From Candidatus Micrarchaeota archaeon (GTDB lineage: Archaea > Micrarchaeota > Micrarchaeia > Norongarragalinales > Norongarragalinaceae), in assembly GCA_016188965.1 (NCBI GenBank), contig JACPGT010000013.1, positions 66-64,065 of the forward strand: 64,000 bases of DNA, read 5' to 3'. A program made the translations under genes and the position numbers. The notes under the pieces are model-generated. The model saw only the letters and a list, made by a program, of their open reading frames with translations. It did no database searches and was not told the DNA's origin. Positions 2,721 to 61,725 of the stretch are shown here, piece after piece. The stretch's first letter is position 1. The number at the start of each line of letters is the position of its first letter.

Positions 2721-2745
2721 GAGTATTCAACTCCGTAAATCAGCA

Positions 2746-4353: not shown

Positions 4354-4361
4354 TTTACCGC

Positions 4362-5330: not shown

Positions 5331-5355
5331 AGGTCAGAATCGCCTTTTGGACTTT

Positions 5356-6420: not shown

Positions 6421-7331
6421 CAGGCTCGTTGCCTCCGTCGGATCAAATTCTGGATGAAGAATTCCCCGGCCCGGTATGAACTGCGCACGAACGGGCCGGA
6501 CGCGCAATAAAGAAAGCCCTTGGATTCCGCCATTTCACGGTAAGCGTCGAATCGCTCCGGGGTGACGTATTCATGTACCGGCAGATGAAGCCGGCTTGGC
6601 CGTAAGTATTGGCCGAACGTGACGACGTCCACATCAGCGGCGAGGAGGTCATCCAATGTTTGATTGATTTCGGCCTCGTTTTCGCCCAATCCGAGCATCA
6701 AGGACGATTTGGTATACGCCGCGCCCATTTTCTTGGCTTCGCGCAAAACGCCGAGCGACTGATCATAATTGGCACGCGGGTCCCGCACGCCCTTCTGCAG
6801 GCGGCGAGTTGTCTCCACGTTGTGGGCAAAGACGTCCGGTTTGGCCTTGACAATGGTGCGGACATGTTCCGCATTGCCGCGGAAATCCGGAGTCAACACC
6901 TCCACCAGCAAGTCCGGGTTGCGGGATTTGAGTTGCTGGATGCATTCCGCGAAATGGTTGGCGCCCTGATCCGGCAAATCATCTCGGTCCACCGACGTGA
7001 TGACGACGTAATCCAGGCCCCAACCCTGAACGGCTTCGGCGATTTTCTGCGGCTCCATAGGGTCCACGGGTTGGCCGTTGCGGGACGTCTTGACGGCACA
7101 GAAGCGACAACCCCGCGTACAGGTGTCGCCTAAGACCATGAACGTGGCCGTGCCGCCGGACCAGCACTCCGTCAGATTCGGGCACTGCGCCTCTTCACAG
7201 ACCGTCACCAGGCCCATCTCGTGCACGGTGCGCGTGACGCTTGCAAACGGTTCGCCATGACCGGGCTTGATGCGCAGCCAGGAGGGTTTTTCCAACGCGG
7301 AATCGGCCGATACGGTAAGCGGGATGGACAT
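6420..7331 (-). CDS. lipA: lipoyl synthase (radical SAM)
   Basis: N-terminal CxxxxCxxxxxC cluster ([12 protein letters not shown]) and radical-SAM CTRGCRFC motif. 303 aa. Confidence 0.93.
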
Positions 7332-7421
7332 GGAAAAAAGCCTTGGTAGTCTTCAACGCCCCCAATCAATAAAAACGAATGAAGATTCGACAATCAACGT
7401 CAAACGGTTGCGGGTGGAGAA

Positions 7422-8129
7422 TCATCGCATGCCGAGCCATTCGTCGGAGCGGTACTTTCCGGCGAACGTGTAGGCCAGCCCAAGCTGCTCTTCCGATACG
7501 CCCATGGGCTCCAAATTCATACCGTAGTGTTCCTCGAATCCGTCCGCCACGGCGCGTTCGACGTCTCCGAACGATTTACCGATTCCGATGACGCGTTGCT
7601 TGACGTCCGAAATGAGCTTGCCCTTCATCTTCTCGGAAGGCACCTTGAGCAAGTCGAACATGCGGTCCACGTCCACGCTCAAGAGGATGGTGCCGTGTTG
7701 CAGCAGGACGCCGCCACGGCGCGTCTGGGCGTTGCCCGAGAATTTCTTGCCGTTGACGATCAGGTCATTCAAAGGCGCGAATTGGCCGTCCACGCCGATT
7801 TTCTTCAGACCCAGCAAGATGCCAGCGCAGATGTCCCGGTACGAGTCCAAGATGTTGCCGCCGAACTGCCGCGTGACGAACGAATACGTCAATTCATCCG
7901 CATGGTACACTGCTCCTCCGCCGGTCACCCTCCGGACGACGTCGACACCATGGCGCTTGCAGGCATCCAAATCCACTTCCTCCTCCAAGCCCTGAAAATA
8001 GCCGATGGACACGGCATGCGGCTTCCAACCGTACAGCCGCAGGACGGGTTCCTGGCAGGTCCGCATCAAGGCCTCGTCGATGCCCATGTTGAGGTACGCG
8101 TCGGAAAAACCGGTTTTCAGAAGTTTCAT
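7422..8129 (-). CDS. lplA: lipoate-protein ligase A, catalytic (N-terminal) subunit
   Basis: 235 aa with a BPL/LplA catalytic-domain-like sequence (RRVTGGGAVYHD, KKFSGNAQ). Lacks the C-terminal accessory domain, which the upstream gene encodes. Confidence 0.85.
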   Translation of the reverse strand: MKLLKTGFSDAYLNMGIDEALMRTCQEPVLRLYGWKPHAVSIGYFQGLEEEVDLDACKRHGVDVVRRVTGGGAVYHADELTYSFVTRQFGGNILDSYRDICAGILLGLKKIGVDGQFAPLNDLIVNGKKFSGNAQTRRGGVLLQHGTILLSVDVDRMFDLLKVPSEKMKGKLISDVKQRVIGIGKSFGDVERAVADGFEEHYGMNLEPMGVSEEQLGLAYTFAGKYRSDEWLGMR

Positions 8130-9378: not shown

Positions 9379-10038
9379 CTATTCAAGCCGTACGCACGCC
9401 GTGGTGCGGTACACGCGCTTGTTCTGATGCTCGCCGACCAGCTTGTTGGACGTCTCGAACTCCAGCTTCAACTGCGAGAGCACTTCCAACGCCGGCCTTT
9501 TCTTCCCCACCTGGATATCGGGGCCTTCCTTGTGCTCCACGACTTTCGAGATGAAAGTCCGCGCCTCGAGACGGCGGAGGAGTTTGGGCAGCAAGCGTTC
9601 GACCCTCTCGGGGTTTCCGCGCAGCTGGATGATGGCCTCGTGGTACCCGCCGGACATCAAAGCGCAATCCGGGCACTGCGTCTTGATGAAACGGAAGTCC
9701 AACCGGTCGTCCAGCGCGACGGTCTGGCCTTCCGCCTGAACCGTGATACGAACGTCGGCATGCGCCAGTTTCGAATCCGGATCCACGTGCAGCTTGGCTG
9801 CGATGGACTTGATGACGTGGTTGCTCTTGATCTTCTCCCGCAAGTAGTCCGGCAGTTGCTTTTCGTCGCGCCAGAAGCCCTTCAGACGCATGCGGCCGCA
9901 CTTGACGCAACGGTCCAACTCCAATTCCGGCAGTTCGTACAAGGGCTGCCGCTGCAGGTAACAGTCCTTGCAGAACGCCGCAATGAACGCGACGTCCGAG
10001 CTTGATTTGCCGCAACGCGGACAGGTCTTTTGCAACAT
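9379..10038 (-). CDS. NMD3-like zinc-ribbon protein (ribosome large-subunit biogenesis family)
   Basis: Paired CxxC motifs (CPRCG..FCKDC, CVKCG, CPDC) in the NMD3 N-terminal arrangement. Shorter than typical family members. Confidence 0.5.
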   Translation of the reverse strand: MLQKTCPRCGKSSSDVAFIAAFCKDCYLQRQPLYELPELELDRCVKCGRMRLKGFWRDEKQLPDYLREKIKSNHVIKSIAAKLHVDPDSKLAHADVRITVQAEGQTVALDDRLDFRFIKTQCPDCALMSGGYHEAIIQLRGNPERVERLLPKLLRRLEARTFISKVVEHKEGPDIQVGKKRPALEVLSQLKLEFETSNKLVGEHQNKRVYRTTACVRLE

Positions 10039-10182: not shown

Positions 10183-10302
10183 GCGGCTGTGGTCCAGTGG
10201 CATGATACGACCTTCCCATAAGCCGGGATAAACGCCCCGAAAATACGCCTTGAACCGGCTTGGAATCAGGTTGAGATGCGGGTTCGATTCCCGCCAGCCG
10301 CA
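10183..10302 (+). tRNA. tRNA-Gly(CCC) with canonical 49-nt intron (10219..10267)
   Basis: Hand fold: acceptor GCGGCTG/CAGCCGC, T arm GCGGG-TTCGATT-CCCGC, anticodon stem CGACC/GGTTG, loop TTCCCAA after splicing, 4-nt variable loop, discriminator A. Perfect BHB: 4-bp central helix TTCC/GGAA, 3-nt bulges, 7-bp inner helix AAGCCGG/CCGGCTT. T-run follows. Confidence 0.85.
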
Positions 10303-18690: not shown

Positions 18691-20121
18691 ATGCGTCGGC
18701 TGTTTTGGTTGCTCGTCCTGCTTGCGCCACTTGTTTTGGGCGGGGCGCTTGACGTAGATTACGCGTCTTGCGAAACCCGATCCGCCAGTGCCGGCCAGAC
18801 GTTTACCTGTCCGTACGGCAAGGTCGCCATCGGCGTTGCCGACAATTTTCCCCCGTCCCCAAGCGTGGATTCATTCCGCTGTTGTCCGGCGTCAACTGAC
18901 GGGGCGCTAACCGGCGGAACTTCCGTGGTCTGGGATGCCTGCAGGGTCAAGGCGACGTCGGTCAATACTTGTACGGGGCAGGATTTTTTCCTGGGAGCTC
19001 TTTTTTCCAGTGAAGGAGGGTTTTCCGGCGCGAATTGCTGCGCGTTGCGGACGGCTGAAACCCGGCCCGTCGTCGTGCGTCGGAATACCTATTCCTACGT
19101 GCCTTTTGACGTAAACCCCAAAAATTGTCCGGATGGCAAGAGTATGTCCGGTGTATCGCAAGGCGCAACCGGCGCCGTAACCGGTTTGGATTGCCGGAGT
19201 GCTTTCACTTCCGGTTACGCGGTTTGGACCGGAAACCCTTCCCCCAAGCCCGGGGCGGGCGGAACAAATGCCATCGTGGCGTGTGGTGACAACCAGGTCA
19301 TGTGCGGGTTCTCGGAGAACCAGGCTGACGTGCTTTGTTGCGATGTCACGTCCGGCGTCGACTTGACCGGCGATACCGTCAAGAGAAGTTATTCAAACAC
19401 CGCGCCCGCCTGCCAAACGAACGAGTACGCGGTCGGCATTAGCAAGTCAGGTTCTCTTGGCGTGTTGTGCAAGAACACAAACAATCCGTGGTCCAGCTCT
19501 CGCAAAGTCCTTACCGTCAACCTGTATGCTCGTTGCGACCAAGATGAAGCCGCGTGCGGCTACGATTACAACGGCGGCCTGTTTTGTTGCAGGTCATATA
19601 TTCCAACTCCGGCCCCGTCTCCTTCACCCTCCCCCGGTCCTTTCCCGAGTCCTTCGCCTTCTATCTCTCCCTCTCCGGCCCCGAGTCCTCTTCCATCCGC
19701 TAGTCCTTCGCCGTCGGCCAGCCCCACGCCCGACCAACGCGCGTCGAACGGACTGAAAATCCGCTGCCCGGTCGGCGTCGTCGCGGAGGAGAACACGACG
19801 GTGTCTGCGTTCTACACGCCGGACGGAGTACCCGCCTGCGTCGGGGCGGCCATGACCGTCACGGCATACGCCAACCAAACATACCAAGCCGTTTCGTACC
19901 GCTCGTGCGACCCGGCCACGGGCCTTCACCGCTTCACCATCAACACCACGCAGGGCGGCAGCTACGACGTGACGGCCCGTTACGGCAGCTTCCAAAGTCG
20001 CTGCGCCTTCGACGTGGTTGGACACGCCCCCACGCCCACGCCGGAATTATCCGGATGGCTGGTCTTGGCAGCGGCCTTGGCGGCGTTCGGCTTGGCCCGC
20101 AAAGGCCGGACTAAACCTTAA
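18691..20121 (+). CDS. secreted Cys-rich surface protein with P/S linker, Ig-like C-terminal module and C-terminal TM anchor
   Basis: N-terminal signal peptide, many Cys residues, PSPSPSP linker. The C-terminal module is paralogous to that of 31792..32940 and ends PTPTPE + hydrophobic helix + RKGRTKP. Confidence 0.7.
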   Translation: MRRLFWLLVLLAPLVLGGALDVDYASCETRSASAGQTFTCPYGKVAIGVADNFPPSPSVDSFRCCPASTDGALTGGTSVVWDACRVKATSVNTCTGQDFFLGALFSSEGGFSGANCCALRTAETRPVVVRRNTYSYVPFDVNPKNCPDGKSMSGVSQGATGAVTGLDCRSAFTSGYAVWTGNPSPKPGAGGTNAIVACGDNQVMCGFSENQADVLCCDVTSGVDLTGDTVKRSYSNTAPACQTNEYAVGISKSGSLGVLCKNTNNPWSSSRKVLTVNLYARCDQDEAACGYDYNGGLFCCRSYIPTPAPSPSPSPGPFPSPSPSISPSPAPSPLPSASPSPSASPTPDQRASNGLKIRCPVGVVAEENTTVSAFYTPDGVPACVGAAMTVTAYANQTYQAVSYRSCDPATGLHRFTINTTQGGSYDVTARYGSFQSRCAFDVVGHAPTPTPELSGWLVLAAALAAFGLARKGRTKP

Positions 20122-20152
20122 ATCGTCCCTCGTCGTGAAAAGTACGCCCGCC

Positions 20153-21157
20153 ATGCTGACCTTTCACGACGACCACGCCCATGTCCGCGCTGGACCGCAT
20201 TCCATCGCCTTGGACGCGCCGGGAACGCATGCCTTCGTGTCCCACGCGCATTTGGACCACTACCGTTCCCTCCGCAAAGCCGAATTAGTATTATCCAGTT
20301 CGGAAACTATGGACTTGTTGTCGGCCCGCGGCAAGACCGTGCCGCCCAAAACCGTCCAACACCACCAGTCCGAAGAGGAAGGCGCGACGCAAGTCCGATT
20401 GCTCAACGCGGGCCACGTGTTGGGCTCCCGCATGCTCTACGCCGAAAGCGCGGCCAACGGGCACGCGGGCCAATCCGTGCTGTACACCGGCGATTTCTTG
20501 TCGCAAGACTCCCTGACCCAGAAAGCGGCGCAACCTAAAGACTGCGACGTGCTGTTGATGGAGTGCACCTACGGCCTGCCCCAATATGAATTCGTCGAGC
20601 GCGCCGTGATGTATGACCAAATCGGCAAATGGGCCTCCGCCGAATTGGCTCTCGGTCGCATCGCCGTCATCGGCGCCTACAGCTTGGGCAAAGCCCAGGA
20701 AGTCGTCGCCGCCTTGAACCAAGCCGGCATCGCGCCGGCCGTCAGTCCGCCCATCGCTGCGCTCAATGAGATTTACGAAAAATACGGCGTCACGTTGGAT
20801 TATACCGTGAATGACGCCGCCACGTTGGCAAGCGGTGCGTTTGCCGCAGTCGTCCCGATGCACCAAGTCAAGCCGGCCATGGCGCAAGGCTTGAAGCAGG
20901 CGTACGGCCGAAAAGCCAGCCTCTCCGTGGCCACGGGTTGGGCCTTGAGCGGCGGCTACGCCGGCTGCGACGCGGCGTTTGCGTTGAGCGACCACAACGA
21001 TTTTCCCGGATTGATCGAATTCGCCCAACAATGCAATCCCAAAAAAGTGTACACCACCCACGGGCCCGCGGACGTGTTCGCGCACCATTTGCGCAAAGCC
21101 GGGCTGGATGCGCAGCCGTTGGAAAATCTCGGCCAAAAGCAGACGACGCTCGCTTGA
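20153..21157 (+). CDS. metallo-beta-lactamase / beta-CASP-like nuclease
   Basis: SHAHLDH (HxHxDH), ECTYG and a C-terminal SDHNDF...TTHG arrangement. ATG at 20153; the track ORF extends upstream across the previous gene. Confidence 0.6.
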   Translation: MLTFHDDHAHVRAGPHSIALDAPGTHAFVSHAHLDHYRSLRKAELVLSSSETMDLLSARGKTVPPKTVQHHQSEEEGATQVRLLNAGHVLGSRMLYAESAANGHAGQSVLYTGDFLSQDSLTQKAAQPKDCDVLLMECTYGLPQYEFVERAVMYDQIGKWASAELALGRIAVIGAYSLGKAQEVVAALNQAGIAPAVSPPIAALNEIYEKYGVTLDYTVNDAATLASGAFAAVVPMHQVKPAMAQGLKQAYGRKASLSVATGWALSGGYAGCDAAFALSDHNDFPGLIEFAQQCNPKKVYTTHGPADVFAHHLRKAGLDAQPLENLGQKQTTLA

Positions 21158-38836: not shown

Positions 38837-39005
38837 CGGGCCCGACGGGATTTGAACCCGCAACCTGCTGGTTTCTCCCACTAGGAAAGAAAGCCAATAA
38901 TGCCGTTCTCTCCCAAGATCGAAGCCTCGGCTTCCGAAGAGGCCTTAAAAGCTTGAAAGCCGGTATTCGGAACCAGCCGCTCTATCCTGGTTGAGCCACG
39001 GGCCC
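38837..39005 (-). tRNA. tRNA-Arg(CCG) with canonical-position 94-nt intron (38873..38966)
   Basis: Hand fold: acceptor GGGCCCG/CGGGCCC, D arm GCTC-AACCAGGATA-GAGC, anticodon stem GCTGG/CCAGC, loop TTCCGAA after splicing, variable AGGTT, T arm GCGGG-TTCAAAT-CCCGT, discriminator G. The BHB central helix is TTCC/GGAG. Confidence 0.85.
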
Positions 39006-39221: not shown

Positions 39222-41033
39222 TCAGCGGTTGGAAGAAGTCCGCGTGCCGACGGCGTAGACGCGATAGAACGCATTCTGGAACGCCACGGGTTTGCCGGAA
39301 AAGAATTCGTCGTTGACGGCGTAATCCCGGCGGACGTTGGCATCCACCACGACGTAATCCACGCCGCTTGATTCGAGGCGGGCCGCGTCGCCGGCATACA
39401 TGGCCTTGGCGTCGGCTTGCACGGAGCCGTAGTCAAAGCCGTGGCTCCACAACCAGCCCGGGTAGCCTAAGACCGTCATGCGGCCGGCCAGCGAAGAGAC
39501 CGGGTGGTTGTGCGCGGTGGACGTGAGGAACACGGCGGAGCGGGAGGTGTTGCTTTGGGCCCACTCGGCCAATTGCAAGTCGTTCGCATCATACAGCCGC
39601 CAGTGAAGGCCGGCTTCGCGCGCGATGCTCAAAGAGCCGGAAAAAACCAGGACGGCCAAGACGACCGCCACGGCAACCTGAAGCACGCGCTGCTTTCGTT
39701 GCCACAGCGACACGAGTCCTGCCGCGATGAAGAACGCCGCGGCCCACTGGACGAAGAAGAAGAACTTGAGGTTGTCGTACGCGTACGGATGCACGCTCAC
39801 GAACGCCGCCAGGACGAAAAGCACTCCGAAAGGCAGAAAGCGCTGACGCTGTTCACGCGTCGCCGACCAGAGACCGAACAGCAACGCCGGAATCCAGAAA
39901 CCCGTCTGCATCAGCCAGAAAGCCGCGCCGGCAATGGGGTCCCACGCGTTGGCCGTCCAATTGGGCTGCAAATGAATCAAGGACGAAGGAGTGAGTTGCT
40001 GGAGGCTCCAGGCCAATTGAGGCAACGCCAACAGCACTGCCGGAAGGAAGAACCAGAGCCAGACTTTGCGGCGGGCCGACACGGCATAGAATACCGCAAC
40101 GCCCATAGCGGCCAAATAGGAATGCCAATGCACCAACGGCAACAAACCGGCAAGGGCCCCGGCCAGCAGGAAGTCATGGCGGCGGGAAGCGTGAAGCAAC
40201 AAAAACAGGACGGCGGCAAAGACGGCCGCGCCGAACAACAACGTCCGCTGGGGCAGAAGGAGACTGGTCACGACGTTGGTCCACGCCGTGGGCGGCAGGA
40301 TGGTGTAATCCTTGGCCATGAGGGCCGAACCGATGCCGTCGCGTACGGCAGCAGCCGGAAAATCGATGAACCCAAGGCCCCCGCTGGACAACAGAAGCAC
40401 CAACGCCAGGACGCAGGCGGATTTGGAAAAACCCATCTTGAGGCCGACGGCATATGACAGCAGCATCAAGGCCAGGAACCAGGACAGAGCGGAAAACAAC
40501 AAGGCGGCTTGCAGCGACGCGCCGGGCATGAGCAAAGCCGTGGAAAAATCGGCCATGAACGGATACCCCAGCGGGCTGTCGAAGATTACGTACGCCGGCG
40601 GAAAGGATTGGCCGAAGACGAAGTAGTGGATCACGCCGAGGTGGAACGGCAAATCGCCCCACGTGTTGCCCGACGAATACCACCCGTCCGGCTCAACCTG
40701 GACGAAATGCGTCAACGACAAGTAGGAAAACGCGGCTACGGCCAGGGCCAGGAAGATGCAGAACGCGCGATGGTGCTTAAAGATGGACGCAAGTCGGGGG
40801 GCATGCAGGCCGAAGCGCCACGCCGAAAGCCCGAACGCGGCCACGGACGCCACGGCGGACAAGGCAAAACCGGCATCCAAGCCGAAGAACCAATACCCCG
40901 CCATGCCAAACCAGGAAAACGCCAGGAATCCCGCCACAGCGGAGAGGCCCACGGCCGGCAAATCGTCAAAACGCCTTCGAAAGAATCCGAAAAACGCCGC
41001 CGAGAAGAGCAACGGCAAAAGAAGCGACCACAT
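39222..41033 (-). CDS. GT-C-like polytopic membrane glycosyltransferase candidate with C-terminal extracytoplasmic domain
   Basis: About 13 TM helices plus a roughly 130-aa C-terminal domain. ATG 41033 overlaps the upstream stop by 1 nt. Confidence 0.5.
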   Translation of the reverse strand: MWSLLLPLLFSAAFFGFFRRRFDDLPAVGLSAVAGFLAFSWFGMAGYWFFGLDAGFALSAVASVAAFGLSAWRFGLHAPRLASIFKHHRAFCIFLALAVAAFSYLSLTHFVQVEPDGWYSSGNTWGDLPFHLGVIHYFVFGQSFPPAYVIFDSPLGYPFMADFSTALLMPGASLQAALLFSALSWFLALMLLSYAVGLKMGFSKSACVLALVLLLSSGGLGFIDFPAAAVRDGIGSALMAKDYTILPPTAWTNVVTSLLLPQRTLLFGAAVFAAVLFLLLHASRRHDFLLAGALAGLLPLVHWHSYLAAMGVAVFYAVSARRKVWLWFFLPAVLLALPQLAWSLQQLTPSSLIHLQPNWTANAWDPIAGAAFWLMQTGFWIPALLFGLWSATREQRQRFLPFGVLFVLAAFVSVHPYAYDNLKFFFFVQWAAAFFIAAGLVSLWQRKQRVLQVAVAVVLAVLVFSGSLSIAREAGLHWRLYDANDLQLAEWAQSNTSRSAVFLTSTAHNHPVSSLAGRMTVLGYPGWLWSHGFDYGSVQADAKAMYAGDAARLESSGVDYVVVDANVRRDYAVNDEFFSGKPVAFQNAFYRVYAVGTRTSSNR

Positions 41034-42121
41034 CAGGCCGACCCCGACTCGCGGCCTGCGATCCACGCCGTGGTCTGGACAAGTCCGAACGCCGCCAATA
41101 TGATAAGCGCGAACTGCAGGTAGACGATGAACCGGTCCATGAACACGCCGATGCCCAACGCGTCATTCTTGATGGCGAAAAGACCCACGGCCACCAACGC
41201 CAACAACAAGCCCTGCAGCAGGACTGGCCGCGGATTCTCGCGCCGCAATGCCTGCCAGACGTGCCAGAGAACAATCAGCAAGCCGACGGCGGCCAGGCCC
41301 AGCACGAGCCAGCCGGTCTTGTCCAAAAGCAAGTCAGGACTCACCGGTCCGCCTTCGCGGTGCTTGAACTGTGCCAACTCGAATACGTTGAAGTGGCCCA
41401 GGATGAGGAAGTTCCACAAGAAGTACGTCCCCGTGGTCGCGGCCCACGTCCAGAGCGCCGTCCAGAAGACGCGCGACGAGTCGGTCTTCAGAAGCACGTC
41501 GTGGATCTTGGACGCCGCGGCAAAAGCGAACGCTGTCAACGCGAGGAACACCGCCGCCTCCTGGTGCACCAACGCCACCAAGACTCCGCCGAGGACGGCC
41601 CACCGGCTTGCGGCAAACAATAGGCCGAAGACCAACGCCAAAAGCACCAAGCCCATGCCTTGCGGCAGCGGCCGGATGGTATAGATCAGCAACTCGGACG
41701 GCGCGGATGCCAAGAACGCCGAAGCGATGCCGGTCCACGTGCCGAAGGACGAACCGAAAGCGAAGAACGCCAAAGGCAGCGCCAATGCGAACAGAAGCAC
41801 CATCACGCGCTGCGCCAAGTCGAAGTCGAAACCGGACAGCACGACGAGCTGGGCCAAAGCGAAGCGGTAAATCGGCACGTACAAGTTAGGAATGCCGCCG
41901 CCGTAGGAAAAGTCATTCTGGAAAGGATAGTGGCCGGTTTCCACCAGTTCGCGCGCGTTGGCCTGATGAATCCCGGTGTTGCCATAGGTTGGCGCCAAGA
42001 AGGCGTCAAAGACGCCAGCATGCGCCCAGACACTGGCCAGCACGGCCACCACCACGAGCGCGCCTTGCACGGGCGTCAAACCCGACGCGTGTGACTTGCC
42101 GTCCCCAACTCCTACAGCCAT
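41033..42121 (-). CDS. polytopic membrane protein (GT-C-like candidate)
   Basis: About 10 TM helices. Start set at internal Met (MAVGVGDGK) because the longer ORF overlaps the divergent gene; start uncertain. Confidence 0.45.
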   Translation of the reverse strand: MAVGVGDGKSHASGLTPVQGALVVVAVLASVWAHAGVFDAFLAPTYGNTGIHQANARELVETGHYPFQNDFSYGGGIPNLYVPIYRFALAQLVVLSGFDFDLAQRVMVLLFALALPLAFFAFGSSFGTWTGIASAFLASAPSELLIYTIRPLPQGMGLVLLALVFGLLFAASRWAVLGGVLVALVHQEAAVFLALTAFAFAAASKIHDVLLKTDSSRVFWTALWTWAATTGTYFLWNFLILGHFNVFELAQFKHREGGPVSPDLLLDKTGWLVLGLAAVGLLIVLWHVWQALRRENPRPVLLQGLLLALVAVGLFAIKNDALGIGVFMDRFIVYLQFALIILAAFGLVQTTAWIAGRESGSA

Positions 42122-42241
42122 AGTATTCCGGCAAAATGATGGTAAAACCGGCTTAAAAGAAGCAACGGGAAACAACCGGAAAACGCAAAGGCCTTGAAGA
42201 CCGGATGCCACAAATACCTTGCACAAGACAAAGACACTGCG

Positions 42242-43378
42242 ATGAAAGAAGTACGCGCCTGGACCGAGCCGACCCGACGGTTCATCCGACAACATCCCTT
42301 CCTCTGGCGTTCGCTCAGCCTGGCCTTCGCCGTCCGAATCGCGATGCTGGCGTTAGCCTACCTGGCTGGCCGCGTTTTTTTGCAGAACGCCGCGCCGTTG
42401 ACGGACATGATGACGGAAGTGCTCGTCCGCTGGGACGCCGTGCACTACGTCAACCTCGCGCTCAACGGCTACAGCGCAGTGGGAGAGGAACGGTTCCTGC
42501 TCGTTTTCCTTCCGCTATACCCGTTGGCCATCGCGCTGTTCAACCCAATCGTGCAGCACGCCGTGCTCTCCGGCCTGCTGGTATCGTTCGGCTCCAGCGT
42601 AGCCGCCGGCTATTACCTGCAGAAACTGGCCCGCATGGACGGACCCAAGGAAGAAGCCCACCGCGCCTTGGACTTCTTCTTCCTATTCCCAACGGCGTAC
42701 TTCCTCGTCTTGCCTTACACCGAAGCGCTATTCATGGCATTTACCCTTGCCGCGTTCTGCCACGCCCGCGAAAAACGCTGGAAGGCCGCCGGAATCCTCG
42801 GAAGCTTGGCGGCCGCCACCCGTCTGCAAGGCATCCTGCTTCTGCCCGCCCTCGCCGTAGAAGCATGGAGCCAGAAGGAACAACCCGTACGCGCCGCCGG
42901 ATTGCTGCTGGTCCCGCTCGGATTGCTGGCATACGTCGCCCTCAACGTCGCGGTCAGCGGCAACGCATGGACGTTCATCGATTACCAAAGCGAGCATTGG
43001 CACCATTCGCTCGTTGCACCGTGGCAATTCGCCCTCGACGCCGTCCAGGACGTGCGGCAGGACCCGCCATCCCTCAACCGCACCTTAGTGGCCGAATCCG
43101 TCCTCGTCTCGCTGGCATTCGTCATCTTCCTGCTTTTAGGCGCCATGCGCTGGCTGCGGCCCTCATACCAGGCCTACGGATGGCTCATGCTGCTGGCGCT
43201 GTCCAGCGTCTCGTTCCAAATCAGCTTCCCCCGCTACGTGCTTTCCATCTTCCCCCTCTTTTTCGTGCTGGCGCGATGGACGAAGCGTCCCAACGTCCAC
43301 CTCCTCACTTCCGCCGTCTTCACACTGCTGATGGGCGGCCTATTCTTCCTGTACGCCATCGGACGATGGGCGTTCTGA
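42242..43378 (+). CDS. PIG-V-like / GT-C mannosyltransferase family membrane protein
   Basis: VRWDAVHYVNLALNGY followed by FLPLYPL is the characteristic PIG-V family N-terminal loop motif. Polytopic. Confidence 0.6.
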   Translation: MKEVRAWTEPTRRFIRQHPFLWRSLSLAFAVRIAMLALAYLAGRVFLQNAAPLTDMMTEVLVRWDAVHYVNLALNGYSAVGEERFLLVFLPLYPLAIALFNPIVQHAVLSGLLVSFGSSVAAGYYLQKLARMDGPKEEAHRALDFFFLFPTAYFLVLPYTEALFMAFTLAAFCHAREKRWKAAGILGSLAAATRLQGILLLPALAVEAWSQKEQPVRAAGLLLVPLGLLAYVALNVAVSGNAWTFIDYQSEHWHHSLVAPWQFALDAVQDVRQDPPSLNRTLVAESVLVSLAFVIFLLLGAMRWLRPSYQAYGWLMLLALSSVSFQISFPRYVLSIFPLFFVLARWTKRPNVHLLTSAVFTLLMGGLFFLYAIGRWAF

Positions 43379-46960: not shown

Positions 46961-48171
46961 TCAATCGACCGCCGCGATTCGAACAGCGGCGGCCTTCAGG
47001 TCTTGGGCCTTGTCCGTCTTTTCCCACGTGAAATCCGGATCATCCCGCCCGAAGTGCCCGTACGCCGCCGTCTTTCGGTAAATCGGGCGCTTAAGCCGAA
47101 GGTGCTCGATGATGGCCCGCGGCTTGAGGACAAAATGCTGTCGCACTAGTTTTTCCAACGCCGCATCCGGAATCAAGCCTGTGCCGAATGAGTTGACCAG
47201 CACCGAAACCGGCTCGGCCACGCCGATGCTGTACGCCAACTGCACCTCGACTTTCGAAGCCAACCCGGCCGCGACGAGGTTCTTGGCCACGTACCGCGCC
47301 ATGTACGCCGCCGAGCGGTCCACCTTGGACGGATCCTTCCCGCTGAAGGCGCCGCCGCCGTGCCGGCCGTAGCCGCCATAGGTGTCGACGATGATCTTGC
47401 GACCCGTCAGACCCGTGTCCGCCTCCGGTCCGCCCACAACGAAGATGCCGGTGGCGTTGATGAAGAATTTCGTTTGCGCATCCAGCCACGCGCCGCAGAC
47501 CGGCTTGATGACCTGCTCGATCACGTCGGAACGCAGTTTGTCCTGCGGCACGTCCGGATTGTGGTGCACGGCGATGACCACGGCATCCACCCGCTTCGGC
47601 TTGCCGTCGACGTATTCGACGGTGACCTGGCTCTTGCCGTCCGGCCGCACCCACGACAGGATGGCCTCCTTGCGGACCTGGGCCAAGCGAGCCGTCAGCT
47701 TGTGCGCCAGGCTAATGGGCAGCGGCATGAGTTCCGGCGTCTCGTCGCAGGCAAAACCGAACATCAGGCCCTGGTCGCCAGCGCCCTGCTCATGGTCCTG
47801 CGACTCGTCGACGCCAATCGCGATGTTCTGGCTCTGCTCATGGATGGCCGTCAGCACGGCACAATCCTTCGAATCCAGGCCGTACTCCGGATCGGTATAA
47901 CCGATTCCCTCCAAGGTCTTGCGCACGATGCCCTGGATGTCCGAATATGCTCTCGTCGTGACCTCGCCGGCGACCATGATGAGTCCCGTGCTGGTCAGCG
48001 TCTCGACCGCTACCCGCGATTGCGGATCCTGCCGCAGCAGGTCGTCGAGGATGGCATCGGATACCTGATCACAGATTGTAGACACGCACGGGACGGCAAA
48101 CGCCGTCACATGGTTTTGTCCGGGTGACCCTCGGTAACCGACTCCGACGTGAAAAACGATCGTTCTGCCAT
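46961..48171 (-). CDS. metK: S-adenosylmethionine synthetase, bacterial/eukaryal MetK type, interrupted by a 38-nt intervening sequence (exons 48171..48115 and 48076..46961)
   Basis: Exon 1 encodes [19 protein letters not shown], preceded by GGAGGT 8 nt upstream. Exon 2 encodes [11 protein letters not shown]...[12 protein letters not shown]...[16 protein letters not shown]. The two parts lie in different frames and a stop lies inside the insert. Confidence 0.85.
48077..48114 (-). other. 38-nt intervening sequence in metK, candidate BHB-type intron (junction ambiguous by +/-1 nt)
   Basis: Removal restores GHPDK-ICDQ exactly. Contains hairpin GACGGC-GTTT-GCCGTC extended by CATG/CGTG. A 4-bp helix GGAC/GTCT is flanked by 3-nt AAA and ACA segments at the junctions. 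Confidence 0.55.
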
Positions 48172-48463
48172 AGCTTGAACCTCCAAATGAACTGGCTGAC
48201 AGACTGATGCGGCGGGCGCGTTAAAAGAATTCCTGACAACTTTATTCCGATAAGAATAAAAAGGGTGTTTGGTTAGTACCGTAGAGCGCGCGGGCATCCA
48301 TTGCTTTCGTGTCTTGGGATTCGGTCTAACCCACCTTCCCCCACCCAGCAAAGAAAAAACCGTTCCGGGAAAGCAACCCCACCCGCCGACCCGGAACGGT
48401 TCCACCTCAACGGCACCGGCGGACGCAGGCATCAACCGTCCGCACGGCCAGCGGGCAAAAACC

Positions 48464-49024
48464 ATGTTGCCGTCCATCCAGGAAATCAAGGCGCGGCGCA
48501 AGAAACTAGGCTTGACCCAGTCCCAACTCGCCTCGGAGGCGGGCGTGTCGCAGTCGCTCATCGCCAAAATCGAAGCCGGGACGCTGGACGCTTCGTATTC
48601 CAACGCCGTACGGATTTTCGAGGCAATTGAGCGGCTCGAGCACAAGATTACCCCACTGGCGAGCCAAATCATGCATGCCGGCGTGCAGCACGTCAAGACG
48701 ACGGATTCAGTGGGCAAAGCCCTGAAGCTGATGAAATCGCAGGATTTCTCACAGGTGCCGGTCTACGAAGGCAGCCACCCCGTCGGGAGCCTGTCGGACA
48801 AGACGGTGCTGGACAAGATTTCCGAAGGCATGGGCATGGCGGAATTGTCCGCATTGAAAGTTGCCGACGTGATGGGCGACGGTTTTCCCGTGGTGGATGA
48901 AAAAACGCCCCTGCCCGCCGTCTCGTCTCTTCTGAACTACCATTTCGCTGTTCTTGTTCGGAAAAAGGACAAGATCGACGGCATCATCACCAAGGCGGAC
49001 TTGATGAAGCTGGTGGGACGCTAA
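48464..49024 (+). CDS. XRE-type HTH + CBS-pair domain regulator
   Basis: LGLTQSQLASEAGVSQSLIAKIE HTH followed by two CBS-like repeats. ATG 48464. Confidence 0.7.
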   Translation: MLPSIQEIKARRKKLGLTQSQLASEAGVSQSLIAKIEAGTLDASYSNAVRIFEAIERLEHKITPLASQIMHAGVQHVKTTDSVGKALKLMKSQDFSQVPVYEGSHPVGSLSDKTVLDKISEGMGMAELSALKVADVMGDGFPVVDEKTPLPAVSSLLNYHFAVLVRKKDKIDGIITKADLMKLVGR

Positions 49025-49834: not shown

Positions 49835-49941
49835 TGGGCCCGGGGAGATTCGAACTCCCGACCGCTCGATGTCCAAAGGTTCAGGCATGTGCCGGAACGC
49901 ATTATCAGTCGAGTGCTCCAACCAGGCTAAGCTACGGGCCC
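49835..49941 (-). tRNA. tRNA-Ile(GAT) with canonical 32-nt intron (49871..49902)
   Basis: Hand fold: acceptor GGGCCCG/CGGGCCC, D arm GCTT..GAGC, anticodon stem CTCGA/TCGAG, loop CTGATAA after splicing, variable CGGTC, T arm GGGAG-TTCGAAT-CTCCC, discriminator A. Confidence 0.85.
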
Positions 49942-57437: not shown

Positions 57438-60400
57438 TTATCCGATTTCCTCCAACTCCGGCTCATCGGACTTGCGCAGCTTGAACCAGTAAGCCAAGCC
57501 GCCCAACACCAACAAACCACCCAGGCCTGCGCCGACTTCCAGAAGCGAGTGCGAACCCAGTAGACCGGAAGCCGGGGAAACGGATGCCAAAGGCGCGCGC
57601 TGCAGTTGCAAAGCCAATTGTTCGGACGCGTAAAGGGCCGCGGCAAAACGACTTTGCGATTGTGCCTCGCGGATGGCATCCAGAAGCGGCGAGGCAGATG
57701 ATGACGCGCCGAATTGCTGTACGGCTTTTTCCGACGCATCCAACGCGGCCTTGCCGTCGGCCTCCAGCCGGTCCAAAAGCGATTCCAGCGCGGCTTCCTC
57801 CTGCACCGCCGCCGAGAAATCCGACTCCACGGACGCCAACGAAACCGGTTTTCCGTCTTCCGCCTTGCCGGCCGCGGATTGCAACTGCTTGACCGCGGCT
57901 TGAAGCGCATCGGCATGGGCCTTAGATTCGGAGTACAACAGCTGCCGGCTGCGCCAGCGCAACGCCGGCTCCGACACCGACCAAGCGGATTCAAAACGCG
58001 CCAAAGCGGGCCAGGACGCGGAACGAATGCGGGCCACCAAGTCCGTCATGGACCGGTTCGCCTCCGACTGCTCGGACTGCCACTGCTGCAAGCGCAGCTG
58101 GGCCGTGGCCAACTGCCCGCGGGCGCCGGAGAGGTCCGAGAGGAACAACGCGGCCTTGGCGTCGTGCAATGCGGACTCCACCTCTTGCGGACATCGGCTG
58201 CAGACCGCCTTGATTTTTTCCCCCAACGCGTTTTTCTGGGACCGGACGTACGCATCCAATTCCTTGACGGCTGCCGAGAGCACGGCGGAATCGGAGCGCC
58301 GCCATGCCGCGTCGGCCCGCTCAAGCAAGGGCCGGATGTCTTCATCGTCCGCCAAGGCGCGGTACTTCTCTAAGGGGTCGGACGCCGCGGGAGCATTCTG
58401 CAGCTGAAACAGAAGCCACGTGGCGTCAGAAAAGCGGCCTTCCGTCAAGGCACGCCGGACTTCCGGCAGGACGCCGGCCGAATCCGGCGCCAACGCAGGT
58501 AGGCGTTCCAGCCAGGCCGTCTGGTTGGCCAGCGTCTCGGGAACGCATGGTAGCTGAACAAGAAAGTCCCGCACTTCATATGCGTTCAGCGAGACGTTGG
58601 CCGAAAAGCGGTACAAACCGTCAGACAGTTTTGCTACTGAAAAATCCGGCGATTCGGGCGTGCAAGCCACCGGCTCATCCAACCGCCATTGGAACGCCAG
58701 GTCGAACGGAACCGTGCTCTGCAGGGAATACGACCACCCGGCTGCAACGGCCGTCTTGTCAAACCGCACCGGCTGCGGCACGTCGAATTCGAAATGAAAG
58801 ACGTTGACGCCTTTTTTCAGCGGCGAGAGCACCGCCTTGATCGAACCGTCGTCGAAGGCCGCCTCTCCGGACGAAATTCCGAGACGTTCCACCGGATAGT
58901 CCACGGCCCGCATCCAGAGCGCCGAACCGTCCACCTCGCTATCCAACGTCAGGACCCAAGCACGCCGCACGACGGAAGGCGACGCGTATCGGTTTTCTTC
59001 CTTGAGCGAACGCGTGCGGACTAACACGTCGTCGGCAACTCCTTCCGCGGCCAAGAGACCGCCGGCCGGCACGTATTCCAGCAGGAGGCCGTCCGGAAGC
59101 AGACGCACGCCGGTAGCAGAAGTAAGCCGGGCGGACGCCGGGATGAACAGCGGGCGTTTGAGCAAAAGGGGCCCGTCCAGTCCGAATTCCAAGTCGTTCT
59201 GGATGGAAAGCAAGAACGACCGGTTGGCAGGCGAATCGGCCACCACCGGCCCGCCGAACCAACGCAGCTCCAGCCGTCGCTCCAAGTACTCTTTCAACCA
59301 AGCGGCCTTGTGCGCATCCACGTCATGGCGGGCCGCTTCCAGCTTTTTTTCCAAAGCGGCCAGATGGCCCAGCTGGGCATCCAGCTGCAGCCGCCCGGAG
59401 ACGTCGAACGAATCAGCCGGCAAGGATACGAATGGGCTGAACGGCAGCAATTCCAGCCACAACGGTTCCAGACGCCCGAAACGCGCCGCAGCCTTGTCCA
59501 GGACGGATTGCCGCATGGATTCCAACGCCTCGAAAACAGAAGAGCCGGCTTCCGGGCCCAACGCGGCCCACTGCGCCAGTTGGCTCCGCTCGGCCGATAC
59601 GTCAAGGCCGTCCGAAGCGGCCGAGTCCAGCCAGGACTTCAACCTATCCGATTCCGACCGGCTCGATACCTCGGCGGGTCGACGCGCAGTTTCCTGCGCA
59701 GCGTTGAGGGCAGTCACGGCGTCTGCCAGTTGCAGGATGCGCTCGCCACGCGAGGCGGGCAGCGGCCGATCCGCCAGCTCCAACGCGGATTGACGGGCTA
59801 AAGCCGTGCGTACCACGTCCGCAGCGCCATCGGCATGCTCCTGCTGGACCGCGCGGCGCAGCGCATCCACTTGCCGCAACAGGTCGGACTCCAACCGACC
59901 CGTCTGCCGGTCGACGTCTCCCCAAGCGGTTGCCGCGGCTTCCGCCTGCTCACGGGCCTGATGGGCGTACGACAGGGCGCGTTCAGCAAAGCCTAACTGC
60001 CCCGCATTCCAGTGGTCCTCCGCCTTGCGGCGGTTTTCCTGCGCATCGGTCCAGGACTGACGGGCCTGCTGCAGCGTTTCGGGAAACGACTGCACCCACC
60101 CCGTCCGCGTATAGGACGACGGCCCCTGCAGGGAAAAAGCGTATTGTGGCACCAGCGAAATCTTCTGCTCGGCCAGGCGGGACTCGAGGCGCTGACCGTC
60201 CTGTAGCCGCTGGTCCACTTCGTCAGCCAGCCGCGAGAAGTCCGAATCCAGCTGCGAAAGCACCCGCGCAACGTCCCGGCACACGGACACCTGGCGTTCA
60301 AGCACTCCTTGCGGCCCCACCAATGCATCCATTCCAGCAACCATGCCTTCGTCGGAACGGGGTGCCGATTCGGCAAAACGCAGGGCATCGGCTACGCGGC

Positions 60401-60905
60401 CACCCAATCCCGGCCCGCTGGAGCGGTTCTCGATGGATTGCCGCTCCGCTTCCAATTCAGAATAAAGCCCTTTGGCCGGGCCATCCAGCCGTACGCCGGC
60501 GTGTTCCAAGTCCGCGATGCAGACATCCACGGCGGGCCAGTTCGAATCGACGGCGGAAACCGCCTGACGCAGCGCCTCGGCGGCCACGCGATGGCACGCC
60601 ACGGAGAGAAATCCATTCAACGCGGCGTTGGCGCCGCCCCAGAACAACGGCGAGTCCTGCCACTGCGCCATCTTTCTTGCCTGCGCCATACCCTTCACGG
60701 CATCCTGGCCCAGCCGGACGCCTTGCTCGAATCCGGCATCCTGGGCCAGTTTCCCGCCGAGCGCGACGGGCCGCAAGAAGGCCGTACACGGCTGGAGCGT
60801 CAAAGGAGGCTCGATCGGAGGAAAAAGGAACGCGTAGGCGGAGAACGACAAAGCCGAGGCCGACACGGAAAAGACGATGAGAAGGCAGATGATGGAAACG
60901 CGCAT
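57438..60905 (-). CDS. giant (1155 aa) secreted, C-terminally membrane-anchored, largely alpha-helical surface protein
   Basis: Start set at MRVSIICLLIVFSVSASALSFSAYA (signal peptide, ATG 60905). Long A/L/Q/R/E-rich helical stretches, a central beta-rich region of about 270 aa, and a C-terminal GAGLGGLLVLGGLAYWF helix + KLRK. Confidence 0.7.
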   Translation of the reverse strand: MRVSIICLLIVFSVSASALSFSAYAFLFPPIEPPLTLQPCTAFLRPVALGGKLAQDAGFEQGVRLGQDAVKGMAQARKMAQWQDSPLFWGGANAALNGFLSVACHRVAAEALRQAVSAVDSNWPAVDVCIADLEHAGVRLDGPAKGLYSELEAERQSIENRSSGPGLGGRVADALRFAESAPRSDEGMVAGMDALVGPQGVLERQVSVCRDVARVLSQLDSDFSRLADEVDQRLQDGQRLESRLAEQKISLVPQYAFSLQGPSSYTRTGWVQSFPETLQQARQSWTDAQENRRKAEDHWNAGQLGFAERALSYAHQAREQAEAAATAWGDVDRQTGRLESDLLRQVDALRRAVQQEHADGAADVVRTALARQSALELADRPLPASRGERILQLADAVTALNAAQETARRPAEVSSRSESDRLKSWLDSAASDGLDVSAERSQLAQWAALGPEAGSSVFEALESMRQSVLDKAAARFGRLEPLWLELLPFSPFVSLPADSFDVSGRLQLDAQLGHLAALEKKLEAARHDVDAHKAAWLKEYLERRLELRWFGGPVVADSPANRSFLLSIQNDLEFGLDGPLLLKRPLFIPASARLTSATGVRLLPDGLLLEYVPAGGLLAAEGVADDVLVRTRSLKEENRYASPSVVRRAWVLTLDSEVDGSALWMRAVDYPVERLGISSGEAAFDDGSIKAVLSPLKKGVNVFHFEFDVPQPVRFDKTAVAAGWSYSLQSTVPFDLAFQWRLDEPVACTPESPDFSVAKLSDGLYRFSANVSLNAYEVRDFLVQLPCVPETLANQTAWLERLPALAPDSAGVLPEVRRALTEGRFSDATWLLFQLQNAPAASDPLEKYRALADDEDIRPLLERADAAWRRSDSAVLSAAVKELDAYVRSQKNALGEKIKAVCSRCPQEVESALHDAKAALFLSDLSGARGQLATAQLRLQQWQSEQSEANRSMTDLVARIRSASWPALARFESAWSVSEPALRWRSRQLLYSESKAHADALQAAVKQLQSAAGKAEDGKPVSLASVESDFSAAVQEEAALESLLDRLEADGKAALDASEKAVQQFGASSSASPLLDAIREAQSQSRFAAALYASEQLALQLQRAPLASVSPASGLLGSHSLLEVGAGLGGLLVLGGLAYWFKLRKSDEPELEEIG

Positions 60906-61092
60906 GCCCTGCTTGCGGCCGAAGCATAGGCTTAAACATTGGGTAGAGTTTTTATCAACCCAACGCAGAAAAGGACGCAAACGGACGGACGTCTCCATCG
61001 GACGAAAAACGACGGGAGGCGGGAGCACCGTGATGCGGATGCTAAAAACATTAATAGGTGCCCGGGCCCATGACAAAGCCAGGGAACAGCGC

Positions 61093-61725
61093 ATGCGATT
61101 TTTCAAGCACGGCTCCGTTTTGGCCATCAGCCTACCGGAAAGCCTCCGGCAGAAACTCGGCATCACCGAAAACGACGAATACGACTTCGTCGAAACCCAG
61201 CCGGGTATTCTGACTCTGGTCCGCAAAGGCTCGTCCGTTTCCGCGGAAAAAGTCCGCCAAGCCGTTGCAACTCCCGCAACCGGCACGGCGAGCAAACCGG
61301 TATCCACGCCACACCCACCATTTACGCCGATGCCGTCCGTCACTTCGTCCCAAACCGCATCCAAACCGGCGGGTCCGTCATCCGTCTACGGCTCGACTGG
61401 AACCGCGTTGGACCGCCAAGGCTTCCTCGTGCTTTCCAGCGAAGACGAGGCGAAAGGCTTCTCGTTCCGATTCGAGGGCCTCATCAAATCCGGCGAAATC
61501 AAAGGCATCCGGGGATTTGACAAGAAATTCTACCTTGCCGCACGCGGGTATTCCGAAACCTACGCCGATCGCATTTTAGTCGGCCTCAAGGAACCCAAGA
61601 CGGCATCCGACCTATCCGCCCTGGTCAAGCAGCCCCTCGAAGGCGTGCTCACGTTGTTGTACCTGTTGAAAGAAGAAGGCGAAGTCATCGAGAAAAAACG
61701 CGGGCTGTTCGTCCGCGTCCTGTAG
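61093..61725 (+). CDS. AbrB/SpoVT-like N-terminal domain + C-terminal winged-helix protein
   Basis: MRFFKHGSVLAISLPESLRQKLGITENDEYDFVE..GILTLVRK (swapped-hairpin pattern). C-terminal LTLLYLLKEEGEVIEKKRGLF. Divergent from the giant protein gene. Confidence 0.55.
   Translation: MRFFKHGSVLAISLPESLRQKLGITENDEYDFVETQPGILTLVRKGSSVSAEKVRQAVATPATGTASKPVSTPHPPFTPMPSVTSSQTASKPAGPSSVYGSTGTALDRQGFLVLSSEDEAKGFSFRFEGLIKSGEIKGIRGFDKKFYLAARGYSETYADRILVGLKEPKTASDLSALVKQPLEGVLTLLYLLKEEGEVIEKKRGLFVRVL

Follow-up and report, generated by a model that had tools for sequence, protein, structure and literature searches.

Introduction

Archaeal pre-tRNA introns of the bulge-helix-bulge (BHB) type comprise a helix of 4 bp, A-rich bulges of 3 nt and a hairpin within the intron that stacks on this helix. 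At these sites, the RNA is cut after the second nucleotide of each bulge. For archaeal mRNA, two cases are described in the literature: the introns in the coding sequence of cbf5 (pseudouridine synthase) pre-mRNA in Crenarchaeota (Watanabe 2002; Yoshinari 2006; Yokobori 2009, PMC2738675) and the intron in the 5' untranslated region (UTR) of Haloferax volcanii HVO_1309 (Schwarz 2020, PMC7714728). A paper of 2025 on the splicing endonuclease EndA of ARMAN-2 cites only the work on cbf5, and a literature search found no publication on an intron in metK. Here, we analysed a stretch of 64,000 nt from a Candidatus Micrarchaeota archaeon (contig JACPGT010000013.1, in the following the window), in which the gene metK, coding for a bacterial-type S-adenosylmethionine (SAM) synthetase, is interrupted by 38 nt. 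This insert is very probably a relaxed BHB-type intron in the coding sequence, which would be cut out by EndA and whose exons would be joined by the ligase RtcB. An earlier reading made from the letters of the window alone, in the following the sequence-only reading, had proposed such an intron and regarded it as a possible new class of splicing target. The proposal itself is supported by inserts at the same site in relatives, by compensatory changes in the hairpin, by constraint on the exon and by the cut positions in one lineage (L174), whereas the new class was overstated, as the cbf5 and Haloferax introns were already known.

Like the cbf5 introns, the metK insert would be a short BHB-type intron in a coding sequence with an often relaxed motif, a size in the range of tRNA introns, hosts with an endonuclease of broad specificity and a patchy occurrence with gain and loss among relatives (PMC2738675). 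In contrast to cbf5, metK encodes a metabolic enzyme of bacterial type and lies in Micrarchaeota of the DPANN archaea, the presumed endonuclease is of the ε2 instead of the (αβ)2 type, and splicing was demonstrated experimentally for cbf5, while for metK it is deduced from sequence. The helix of 4 bp, the three A-rich nucleotides after each of its strands, the stacked hairpin and, for metK as a prediction, the cuts after the second of these nucleotides are common to the metK insert and the pre-tRNA introns. Unlike these, metK has no tRNA body, and its outer helix consists of two coding segments and is set back from the central helix, which places the 3' site in a loop and the motif in the HBh' rather than the hBHBh' class of Marck and Grosjean (summarised in PMC5829648).

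Three further systems are comparable in part. The mRNA of HVO_1309 is processed by the archaeal splicing endonuclease, as proposed for metK, but its intron lies in the 5' UTR without interrupting a reading frame, shows a strict BHB motif and belongs to an α'2-type euryarchaeal system. HAC1/XBP1 of eukaryotes (IRE1/RtcB) contain a small coding intron (26 nt in XBP1) whose excision changes the reading frame, with a protein endonuclease cutting at stem-loops and a tRNA ligase joining the exons; in contrast to the metK case, IRE1 is an unrelated endonuclease that acts on twin loops of 7 nt and is stress-regulated. T4 gene 60 and the byps of Magnusiomyces mitochondria resemble metK as short hairpin inserts that are absent from the protein, but byps need matched take-off and landing codons, which are missing in the window and in lineages L161 and L174, and are not removed from the RNA.

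Results and discussion

Interruption of metK and the predicted spliced product

The gene metK is located on the minus strand with its ATG at 48171..48169 and its stop at 46961, and both the start behind GGAGGT and the second frame reaching to this stop were confirmed. The insert of 38 nt breaks the gene between the codons for GHPDK and ICDQ and introduces a stop codon and a frame shift, and the second exon (ICDQVSD…) is found in a different frame from the first. The sequence-only reading had described the first frame as comprising 19 codons; this holds for the MetK codons, but the frame remains open for 21 codons, since two codons of the insert (T, M) follow before the TGA. From its start, the unspliced mRNA thus codes for a peptide of 21 residues only. 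The exact bounds of the insert lie in GAC AAA / ATC TGT, where deletion of 48114..48077 or of 48115..48078 leads to the same product. As claimed before, removal of exactly 38 nt rejoins GHPDK to ICDQ, and the resulting in silico product of 390 aa aligns without a gap at the junction to the solved MetK structures 3iml (E 1.5e-155) and 1fug from E. coli, with residues 2-383 covered. The assignment to the MetK family is in line with the relatives, which comprise PF00438, PF02772 and PF02773, and with the restored GHPDK and full length of the rejoined protein.

The 38-mer occurs as a single copy within the window. A permissive Rfam search of 47950..48300 gave chance-level matches only and neither a riboswitch nor a known RNA family, and an archaeal-type methionine adenosyltransferase was not found among the approximately 55 open reading frames (ORFs) of the window searched with Pfam. 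The unspliced ORF of 382 aa had no exact match in a collection of 15 billion proteins.

Inserts at the same site in related genomes

The 120 closest MetK proteins were taken, 113 of which could be scored at the N-terminus. In 22 of these 113 homologues, the gene call starts just before ICDQ and lacks GHPDK (the truncated calls include P0002-P0006, P0008-P0010, P0013, P0015, P0016, P0022, P0026, P0028, P0043, P0085, P0092, P0101, P0107, P0113 and P0117). These public gene calls comprise 369-383 aa and start within the intron, e.g. with MSKICDQ, because the gene callers miss the intron. Retrieval of the DNA for twelve such proteins resulted in 11 distinct lineages including the window, and in all of them metK is interrupted at exactly the same point by 33-43 nt; the relatives show 71-89% protein identity. 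The insert comprises 38 nt in the window, in L161 and in L165/L166, 37 nt in L176, 36 nt in L169 and L178, 35 nt in L167 and L172, 34 nt in L168, 33 nt in L174 and 43 nt in L173, the latter being partial since it is cut by the contig end. A rescue by simple frameshifting was also considered and rejected, in agreement with the sequence-only reading, since the inserts contain in-frame stops and include lengths of 33 and 36 nt.

The architecture and not the sequence is common to the inserts. Each shows the exon bases GGAC, an unpaired AAA or AAU, a hairpin, GUCU, then AAA, ACA or AUA, and finally AUY UGY GAY, while the hairpin stems differ completely between the lineages (e.g. GACGGC/GCCGUC, GGGGAUGA/UCAUCCCC, UUAGC/GCUAA, CUAAUA/UAUUAG and GCAUAAG/CUUAUGC). 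The intron bases GUCU were present in nine of the ten aligned introns as well as in the partial insert of L173, and were replaced by GCCC in L169.

The alignment with relatives that the sequence-only reading had suggested as a check revealed both an empty site and conserved-site inserts with compensatory changes. In the closest relative, L164 (92% MetK identity, on a contig of 679 kb of GCA_040960315.1), the site is cleanly empty and reads GGACAAGATCTGC. Window and L164 are syntenic over 18 kb with approximately 76% nucleotide identity, and the 38 nt are the largest indel; a second indel of at least 26 nt was not found in this alignment. In addition, 154 further MetK loci from bacteria and other archaea among the matches listed have no insert. 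These intron-less controls originate from MetK scans of genome and metagenome contigs and are mostly bacterial or distant archaeal loci among the matches listed, which also contained no new introns.

Predicted fold and covariation of the insert

The region 48055..48140 (86 nt) folds with RNAfold to -33.6 kcal/mol (z = -2.67), a value reached by one of 200 shuffles, and its minimum free energy (MFE) structure includes the outer helix, the central helix H and the hairpin. The helix GGAC/GTCT, the AAA and ACA bulges and the outer helix GGTCAC/GTGATC were all found where the sequence-only reading had placed them, and it was right in taking the 3' side for a relaxed loop instead of a strict bulge. 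The hairpin of 11 bp that it described (CATG-T-GACGGC/GCCGTC-C-CGTG) was correctly located, but consists of 10 pairs and one U·C mismatch. Together with the AC/GU pairs and one bulged C, these form the inner helix h', which is closed by a GUUU loop and stacks directly on H via an A-U closing pair that is invariant in all ten aligned introns.

Covariation was determined with a structural alignment of ten introns that was registered by hand. In total, 92.2% of the cells were standard pairs, compared to 23-43% when the 3' partners were slid by 1-3 columns, and none of 500 shuffles matched the observed pairing, the double-sided changes or the covariation score. The four pairs of H (G·U, G-C, A-U, C-G) were formed in 97.5% of the cells and those of h' in 88.9%, and 12 of the 13 pairs of h' showed double-sided changes across the ten lineages. 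At the pair beside the closing A-U, for instance, five lineages have U-A, four have C-G and a single one has A-U. Folded individually, the introns reached z-values of -2.8 to -5.5. In each of the ten sequences, the canonical core with 4 bp is 0-1.4 kcal/mol away from the MFE, and in L168 it is identical to the MFE structure. The 5' bulge comprises strictly 3 nt in ten of the 11 lineages, with 4 nt unpaired in L173, whereas the 3' trio (ACA, AAA or AUA) opens a single-stranded stretch of 7 nt without a closed bulge.

The strict hBHBh' arrangement is not present, as CC on one strand and 7 nt on the other lie between H and the outer helix GGUCAC/GUGAYC. H, the intact 5' bulge and the inner helix h' are retained, and the 3' bulge is opened into a loop, as in the relaxed HBh' and BHL forms. 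By its predicted pairing, the metK motif is therefore a member of the relaxed HBh'/BHL class and not of the strict hBHBh' class.

The same covariation bears on the idea of a split gene, in which an N-terminal peptide of about 21 aa and a protein of about 370 aa starting at (A/G/T)TG would assemble non-covalently. This idea can draw on an in-frame NTG three codons before ICDQ in all ten complete introns, which the gene callers use as start (MSKICDQ), and on the purifying selection acting on both pieces. Nonetheless, the NTG is accounted for by the structure: its TG consists of the closing A-U pair and the G of GUCU, and its first base changes in concert with intron position 2 (C-G, U-A, A-U). 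Moreover, L173 shows GCG at this point with no start codon nearby, and there is no Shine-Dalgarno sequence, since the hairpin fills the space where it would be located. A split gene would also leave unexplained that both the frame and the Lys codon are regained in every case by precise removal of the insert, and that the synonymous choice in CCGGAC is constrained. Moreover, the GHPDK loop belongs to the active site of MetK. Altogether, a split gene is considered highly unlikely.

Putative cut positions deduced from lineage L174

While in the window the two possible deletions of 38 nt are equivalent, L174 allows for a distinction. Its junction reads GGACAAT…GTCTATAATT (GGAC AAU … GUCU AUA AUU), so that no AAA codon for Lys exists in the DNA. 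The Lys appears only if the cuts are placed as AA|U and AU|A, i.e. after the second nucleotide of each bulge. Applied to all ten aligned introns, this rule yields GAC-AAA-ATY (D-K-I) in each case, and it is the only rule doing so. Accordingly, the predicted intron of the window extends from 48115 to 48078. The intron bounds given by ARAGORN for the tRNA-Ile(GAU) of the window (UA|A … AC|A) agree with the rule, while those of the other two tRNAs of the window differ slightly from it.

These cut positions also argue against ribosomal bypassing, in which the ribosome would detach on reaching the Lys codon and resume translation in front of ATC without reading the hairpin. The insert has properties expected for such an event, being short, containing a hairpin and carrying a stop within 3-5 codons of the junction, and in several relatives AAA on both sides (GAC AAA … TCT AAA ATC) would provide a possible pair of matching codons for take-off and landing. 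However, the window and L161 have ACA instead of AAA at the landing position, and with AAT as take-off and ATA as landing site the invariant Lys cannot be obtained in L174. The stop codon never adjoins the take-off codon, and the conserved GGAC/GUCU helix with its symmetric cut geometry would have no role. To our knowledge, there is no archaeal example of translational bypassing, and we regard this explanation as extremely improbable.

Selection on the exons

The dN/dS ratios (nonsynonymous to synonymous substitution rates) of both exons and of the whole gene amount to 0.07-0.13 at a dS of 0.8-1.9, with 0.072 in the comparison with L164. In each lineage exon 1 is intact, starts with an ATG of its own and is preceded by a GGAGG-like motif, and in its block FTSESVTE all differences among ten intron-bearing genes are synonymous. 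Based on these substitution patterns, both exons are functional and under strong purifying selection.

A different constraint is visible directly at the junction. The hexamer CCGGAC is present in ten of ten intron-bearing genes compared to 25 of 151 intron-less ones (the latter taken from the matches listed), and GGTCACCCGGAC, comprising the codons GGT CAC CCG GAC, in nine of ten compared to four of 151. The GC content at third codon positions (GC3) of the intron-bearing genes lies between 0.40 and 0.79, and synonymous change is saturated in the eight codons that directly precede GGT CAC CCG GAC. Judged by this codon usage, the exon strand of the central helix is subject to constraint at the RNA level, and this in intron-bearing genes only.

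With these data, the explanation as a pseudogene or as a sequencing or assembly artefact is effectively refuted. A frameshift together with an in-frame stop in an essential-looking gene, and an intact gene in the closest relative L164, are what such an explanation would predict. However, the 11 lineages with an insert at this site stem from separate projects and assemblers that are independent of one another (ENA, JGI, NCBI and Logan assemblies), so that the artefact for which the sequence-only reading had proposed a check is excluded. Furthermore, the low dN/dS on either side of the insert, the preservation of the start, the Shine-Dalgarno-like motif and the residues of exon 1 despite saturated synonymous sites, and the structured covariation within the insert do not fit a decaying gene.

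Proposed splicing mechanism and host

Among the genes of the window, NMD3, a family-B DNA polymerase, an FEN1-type XPG and DUF2070 are archaeal markers, and the closest named MetK homologues are annotated as Candidatus Micrarchaeota or Norongarragalinales (DPANN). Three tRNA genes were identified in the window with Rfam and the intron mode of ARAGORN, while the default mode of ARAGORN detected none of them. As the sequence-only reading had stated, all three carry introns, which implies the presence of the splicing enzymes in the host. Since the intron of tRNA-Ile(GAU) is relaxed, the enzyme of the host evidently handles relaxed motifs. Such motifs are processed only by the (αβ)2 and ε2 endonucleases, the ε2 EndA being the Micrarchaeum/Mancarchaeum type (PMC5829648), and the ε2 EndA of Micrarchaeota is of broad specificity and cuts relaxed motifs (PMC5829648, PMC12397907).

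In the proposed mechanism, the exon bases GGAC and the intron bases GUCU of the pre-mRNA would form the central helix of 4 bp, each strand of which would be followed by three A-rich unpaired nucleotides, with the intron hairpin stacked on the helix. EndA, the archaeal RNA-splicing endonuclease, would cut after the second unpaired nucleotide on either side, and RtcB would join the exons, whereby the Lys codon between GHPD and ICDQ would be composed of AA from exon 1 and A from exon 2. Full-length MetK would then be translated from the spliced mRNA. We infer the cleavage by EndA and the ligation by RtcB from the structure, the covariation, the exon constraint and the selection observed above. 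The features of the locus and the tRNA genes are compiled in Table 1.

Table 1. Positions of the metK features and of the tRNA genes in the window
Feature	Position	Strand	Remarks
metK exon 1	48116..48171	-	ATG to bases AA of Lys-19 codon; 18 residues + (K)
metK exon 2	46961..48077	-	third base of Lys-19 codon, ICDQVSD…, stop
Putative mini-intron, BHB-type (HBh'), 38 nt	48078..48115	-	bounds predicted by cut after second bulge nucleotide
Central helix H, 5' strand, exon GGAC	48118..48121	-	partner 48080..48083
Central helix H, 3' strand, intron GUCU	48080..48083	-	partner 48118..48121
5' bulge AAA, 3 nt	48115..48117	-	predicted cut 48116/48115; AAA or AAU in relatives
3' bulge-equivalent ACA	48077..48079	-	first 3 nt of loop of 7 nt; predicted cut 48078/48077
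Inner helix h' (hairpin)	48084..48114	-	stacked on H; GUUU loop
Outer exon-exon helix, 5' strand GGUCAC	48124..48129	-	CC between helix and H; in MFE fold
Outer exon-exon helix, 3' strand GUGAUC	48067..48072	-	in MFE fold; pair counts in text
Shine-Dalgarno-like GGAGGT	48179..48184	-	7 nt upstream of metK ATG
tRNA-Ile(GAU)	10183..10302	+	relaxed 5' side; ACA 3' bulge as in metK
tRNA, ambiguous	38837..39005	-	intron of about 95 nt
tRNA-Gly(CCC)	49835..49941	-	strict hBHBh': UUCC/GGAA, adjacent AAGCCGG/CCGGCUU

Several observations weigh against this interpretation. The MFE structure mostly contains a helix of 5 bp, GGACA/UGUCU, rather than the H of 4 bp, the 3' cut site lies inside an internal loop of 2 × 7 nt and not in a strict bulge of 3 nt, and the GCCC of L169 introduces an A·C mismatch into H. 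The outer helix is paired in 95% of the cells but shows no double-sided change at all, which is as expected because both of its strands are coding. The pair counts are inflated, since the alignment was built by hand to fit the model; the slid-partner controls and the folds of the individual sequences provide the less biased support. Finally, nine predicted spliced proteins had no exact match in the collection of 15 billion proteins, and neither EndA nor RtcB was found among the approximately 55 ORFs of the window with Pfam. Taking these points into account, a BHB-type intron in metK is still regarded as very probable.

A scan of the window for BHB motifs combined with ORF fusion gave 10,178 candidates and was uninformative on other split genes. 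A stricter scan for A-bulges gave four weak matches and missed metK because of the bulged C in h'.

The ambiguous tRNA in Table 1 was assigned by ARAGORN to Trp(CCA) with a non-standard intron boundary. Under the BHB rule (UUCC/GGAG helix with the bulges GAA and AAA), its anticodon would be CCG (Arg) with an intron at position 37/38.

Distribution and possible mobility of the intron

When the 113 homologues are arranged by neighbour joining, the 22 genes with an intron do not group together but are spread over the tree, and many have intron-less sisters. As far as this tree reflects the history of the gene, the patchy pattern requires either a large number of precise losses or gains that recurred at a single site. 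Since metK is of bacterial type, horizontal transfer of the gene presumably preceded the gain of the intron.

Two LAGLIDADG ORFs resembling homing endonucleases were observed near metK. In L161 (2072..2940, plus strand; also in L162 and L163), an ORF of 289 aa with a double LAGLIDADG motif (PF14528, E 9e-12) and an N-terminal helix-turn-helix (HTH) domain occupies the place of the 5' UTR between promoter and start codon of metK, and it continues in frame into exon 1 and is ended by the TGA of the intron. An unrelated LAGLIDADG_3 ORF (E 7e-8) lies two genes upstream of metK in L176 (392..1198, minus strand; also in L177). With tblastn, no additional copy of either ORF was detected in any of the retrieved loci or in the window.

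The patchy distribution and the proximity of these ORFs to metK in two intron-bearing lineages could also point to a small mobile element at the DNA level, such as a miniature inverted-repeat transposable element or the footprint of a homing endonuclease, so that the features of the insert would reflect DNA recognition and not RNA splicing. This explanation is very unlikely, since the 38-mer is present only once in the window and shows neither terminal inverted repeats nor a target-site duplication beyond the BHB symmetry. As the observed selection would still require a repair at the RNA level, a mobile element would complement splicing rather than replace it. Such a combination, in which the metK mini-intron would be part of a mobile system, has been considered as 'collaborative homing'. 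A LAGLIDADG enzyme would cut intron-less metK at the ultra-conserved GHPDK/ICDQ site, and the intron would shield its own allele. We consider this doubtful; if true, it would explain one identical intron site scattered over the MetK tree.

Regulation of metK and other features of the window

The sequence-only reading had suggested that splicing could gate SAM synthesis. The output of MetK may be coupled to the tRNA-splicing capacity, with splicing as a gate of the SAM supply, but nothing in the present data supports this.

A palindrome TATTC-N6-GAATA (48243..48258, minus reading TATTCTTATCGGAATA) is located approximately 95-100 nt upstream of the metK ATG and is kept in the window, L164, L161, L165, L167-L169, L172, L174, L176, L178 and L081, whether or not an intron is present. 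It lies between metK and a divergent gene coding for an HTH_3 and CBS-domain protein (48269..49024, plus strand), which is syntenic in almost all relatives. From their arrangement, the palindrome and the HTH-CBS gene look like a candidate operator and an adenosyl-ligand-sensing regulator for metK, and they are more obvious candidates for its regulation than splicing. Upstream of the metK promoter, the intergenic sequence of L164 contains an additional 25 nt (TTGCCGTCGATCACGGCGGCTGCTT; 9844..9868, corresponding to approximately 48293 of the window), which include a small inverted repeat.

Apart from metK, the window comprises a complete 2-oxoacid dehydrogenase cluster (E3, E2, E1β and E1α; 1302..8129, minus strand) followed by lipoyl synthase (radical SAM) and lipoate-protein ligase, a notable set for a DPANN archaeon with a small genome. 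Long ORFs with high GC3 were observed at 57438..61364 (minus), 39222..42295 (minus) and 18691..21157 (plus); the long high-GC3 ORFs of the window (1308, 614, 420, 476 and 379 aa) had no Pfam match at E ≤ 1e-5.

Implications

For public databases, the data are a warning that the MetK calls of 369-383 aa in these genomes (e.g. those beginning with MSKICDQ) are systematically wrong. The 11 natural variants of the intron would constitute a substrate series for the biochemistry of EndA. The locus would also date the gain of the intron after the horizontal gene transfer of metK and provide a testable case of the spread of BHB introns.

For more than twenty years, coding BHB introns have rested on a single family, cbf5 in Crenarchaeota, and apart from the Haloferax 5'-UTR intron no other case is cited in papers of 2020 and 2025. 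With metK as a second family, if true, the splicing of mRNA by the tRNA machinery would be no crenarchaeal oddity. Being well conserved and located in DPANN archaea, in a gene that is central to metabolism and came from bacteria, the intron would tie this type of splicing to the lineage of the broad-specificity ε2 endonuclease.

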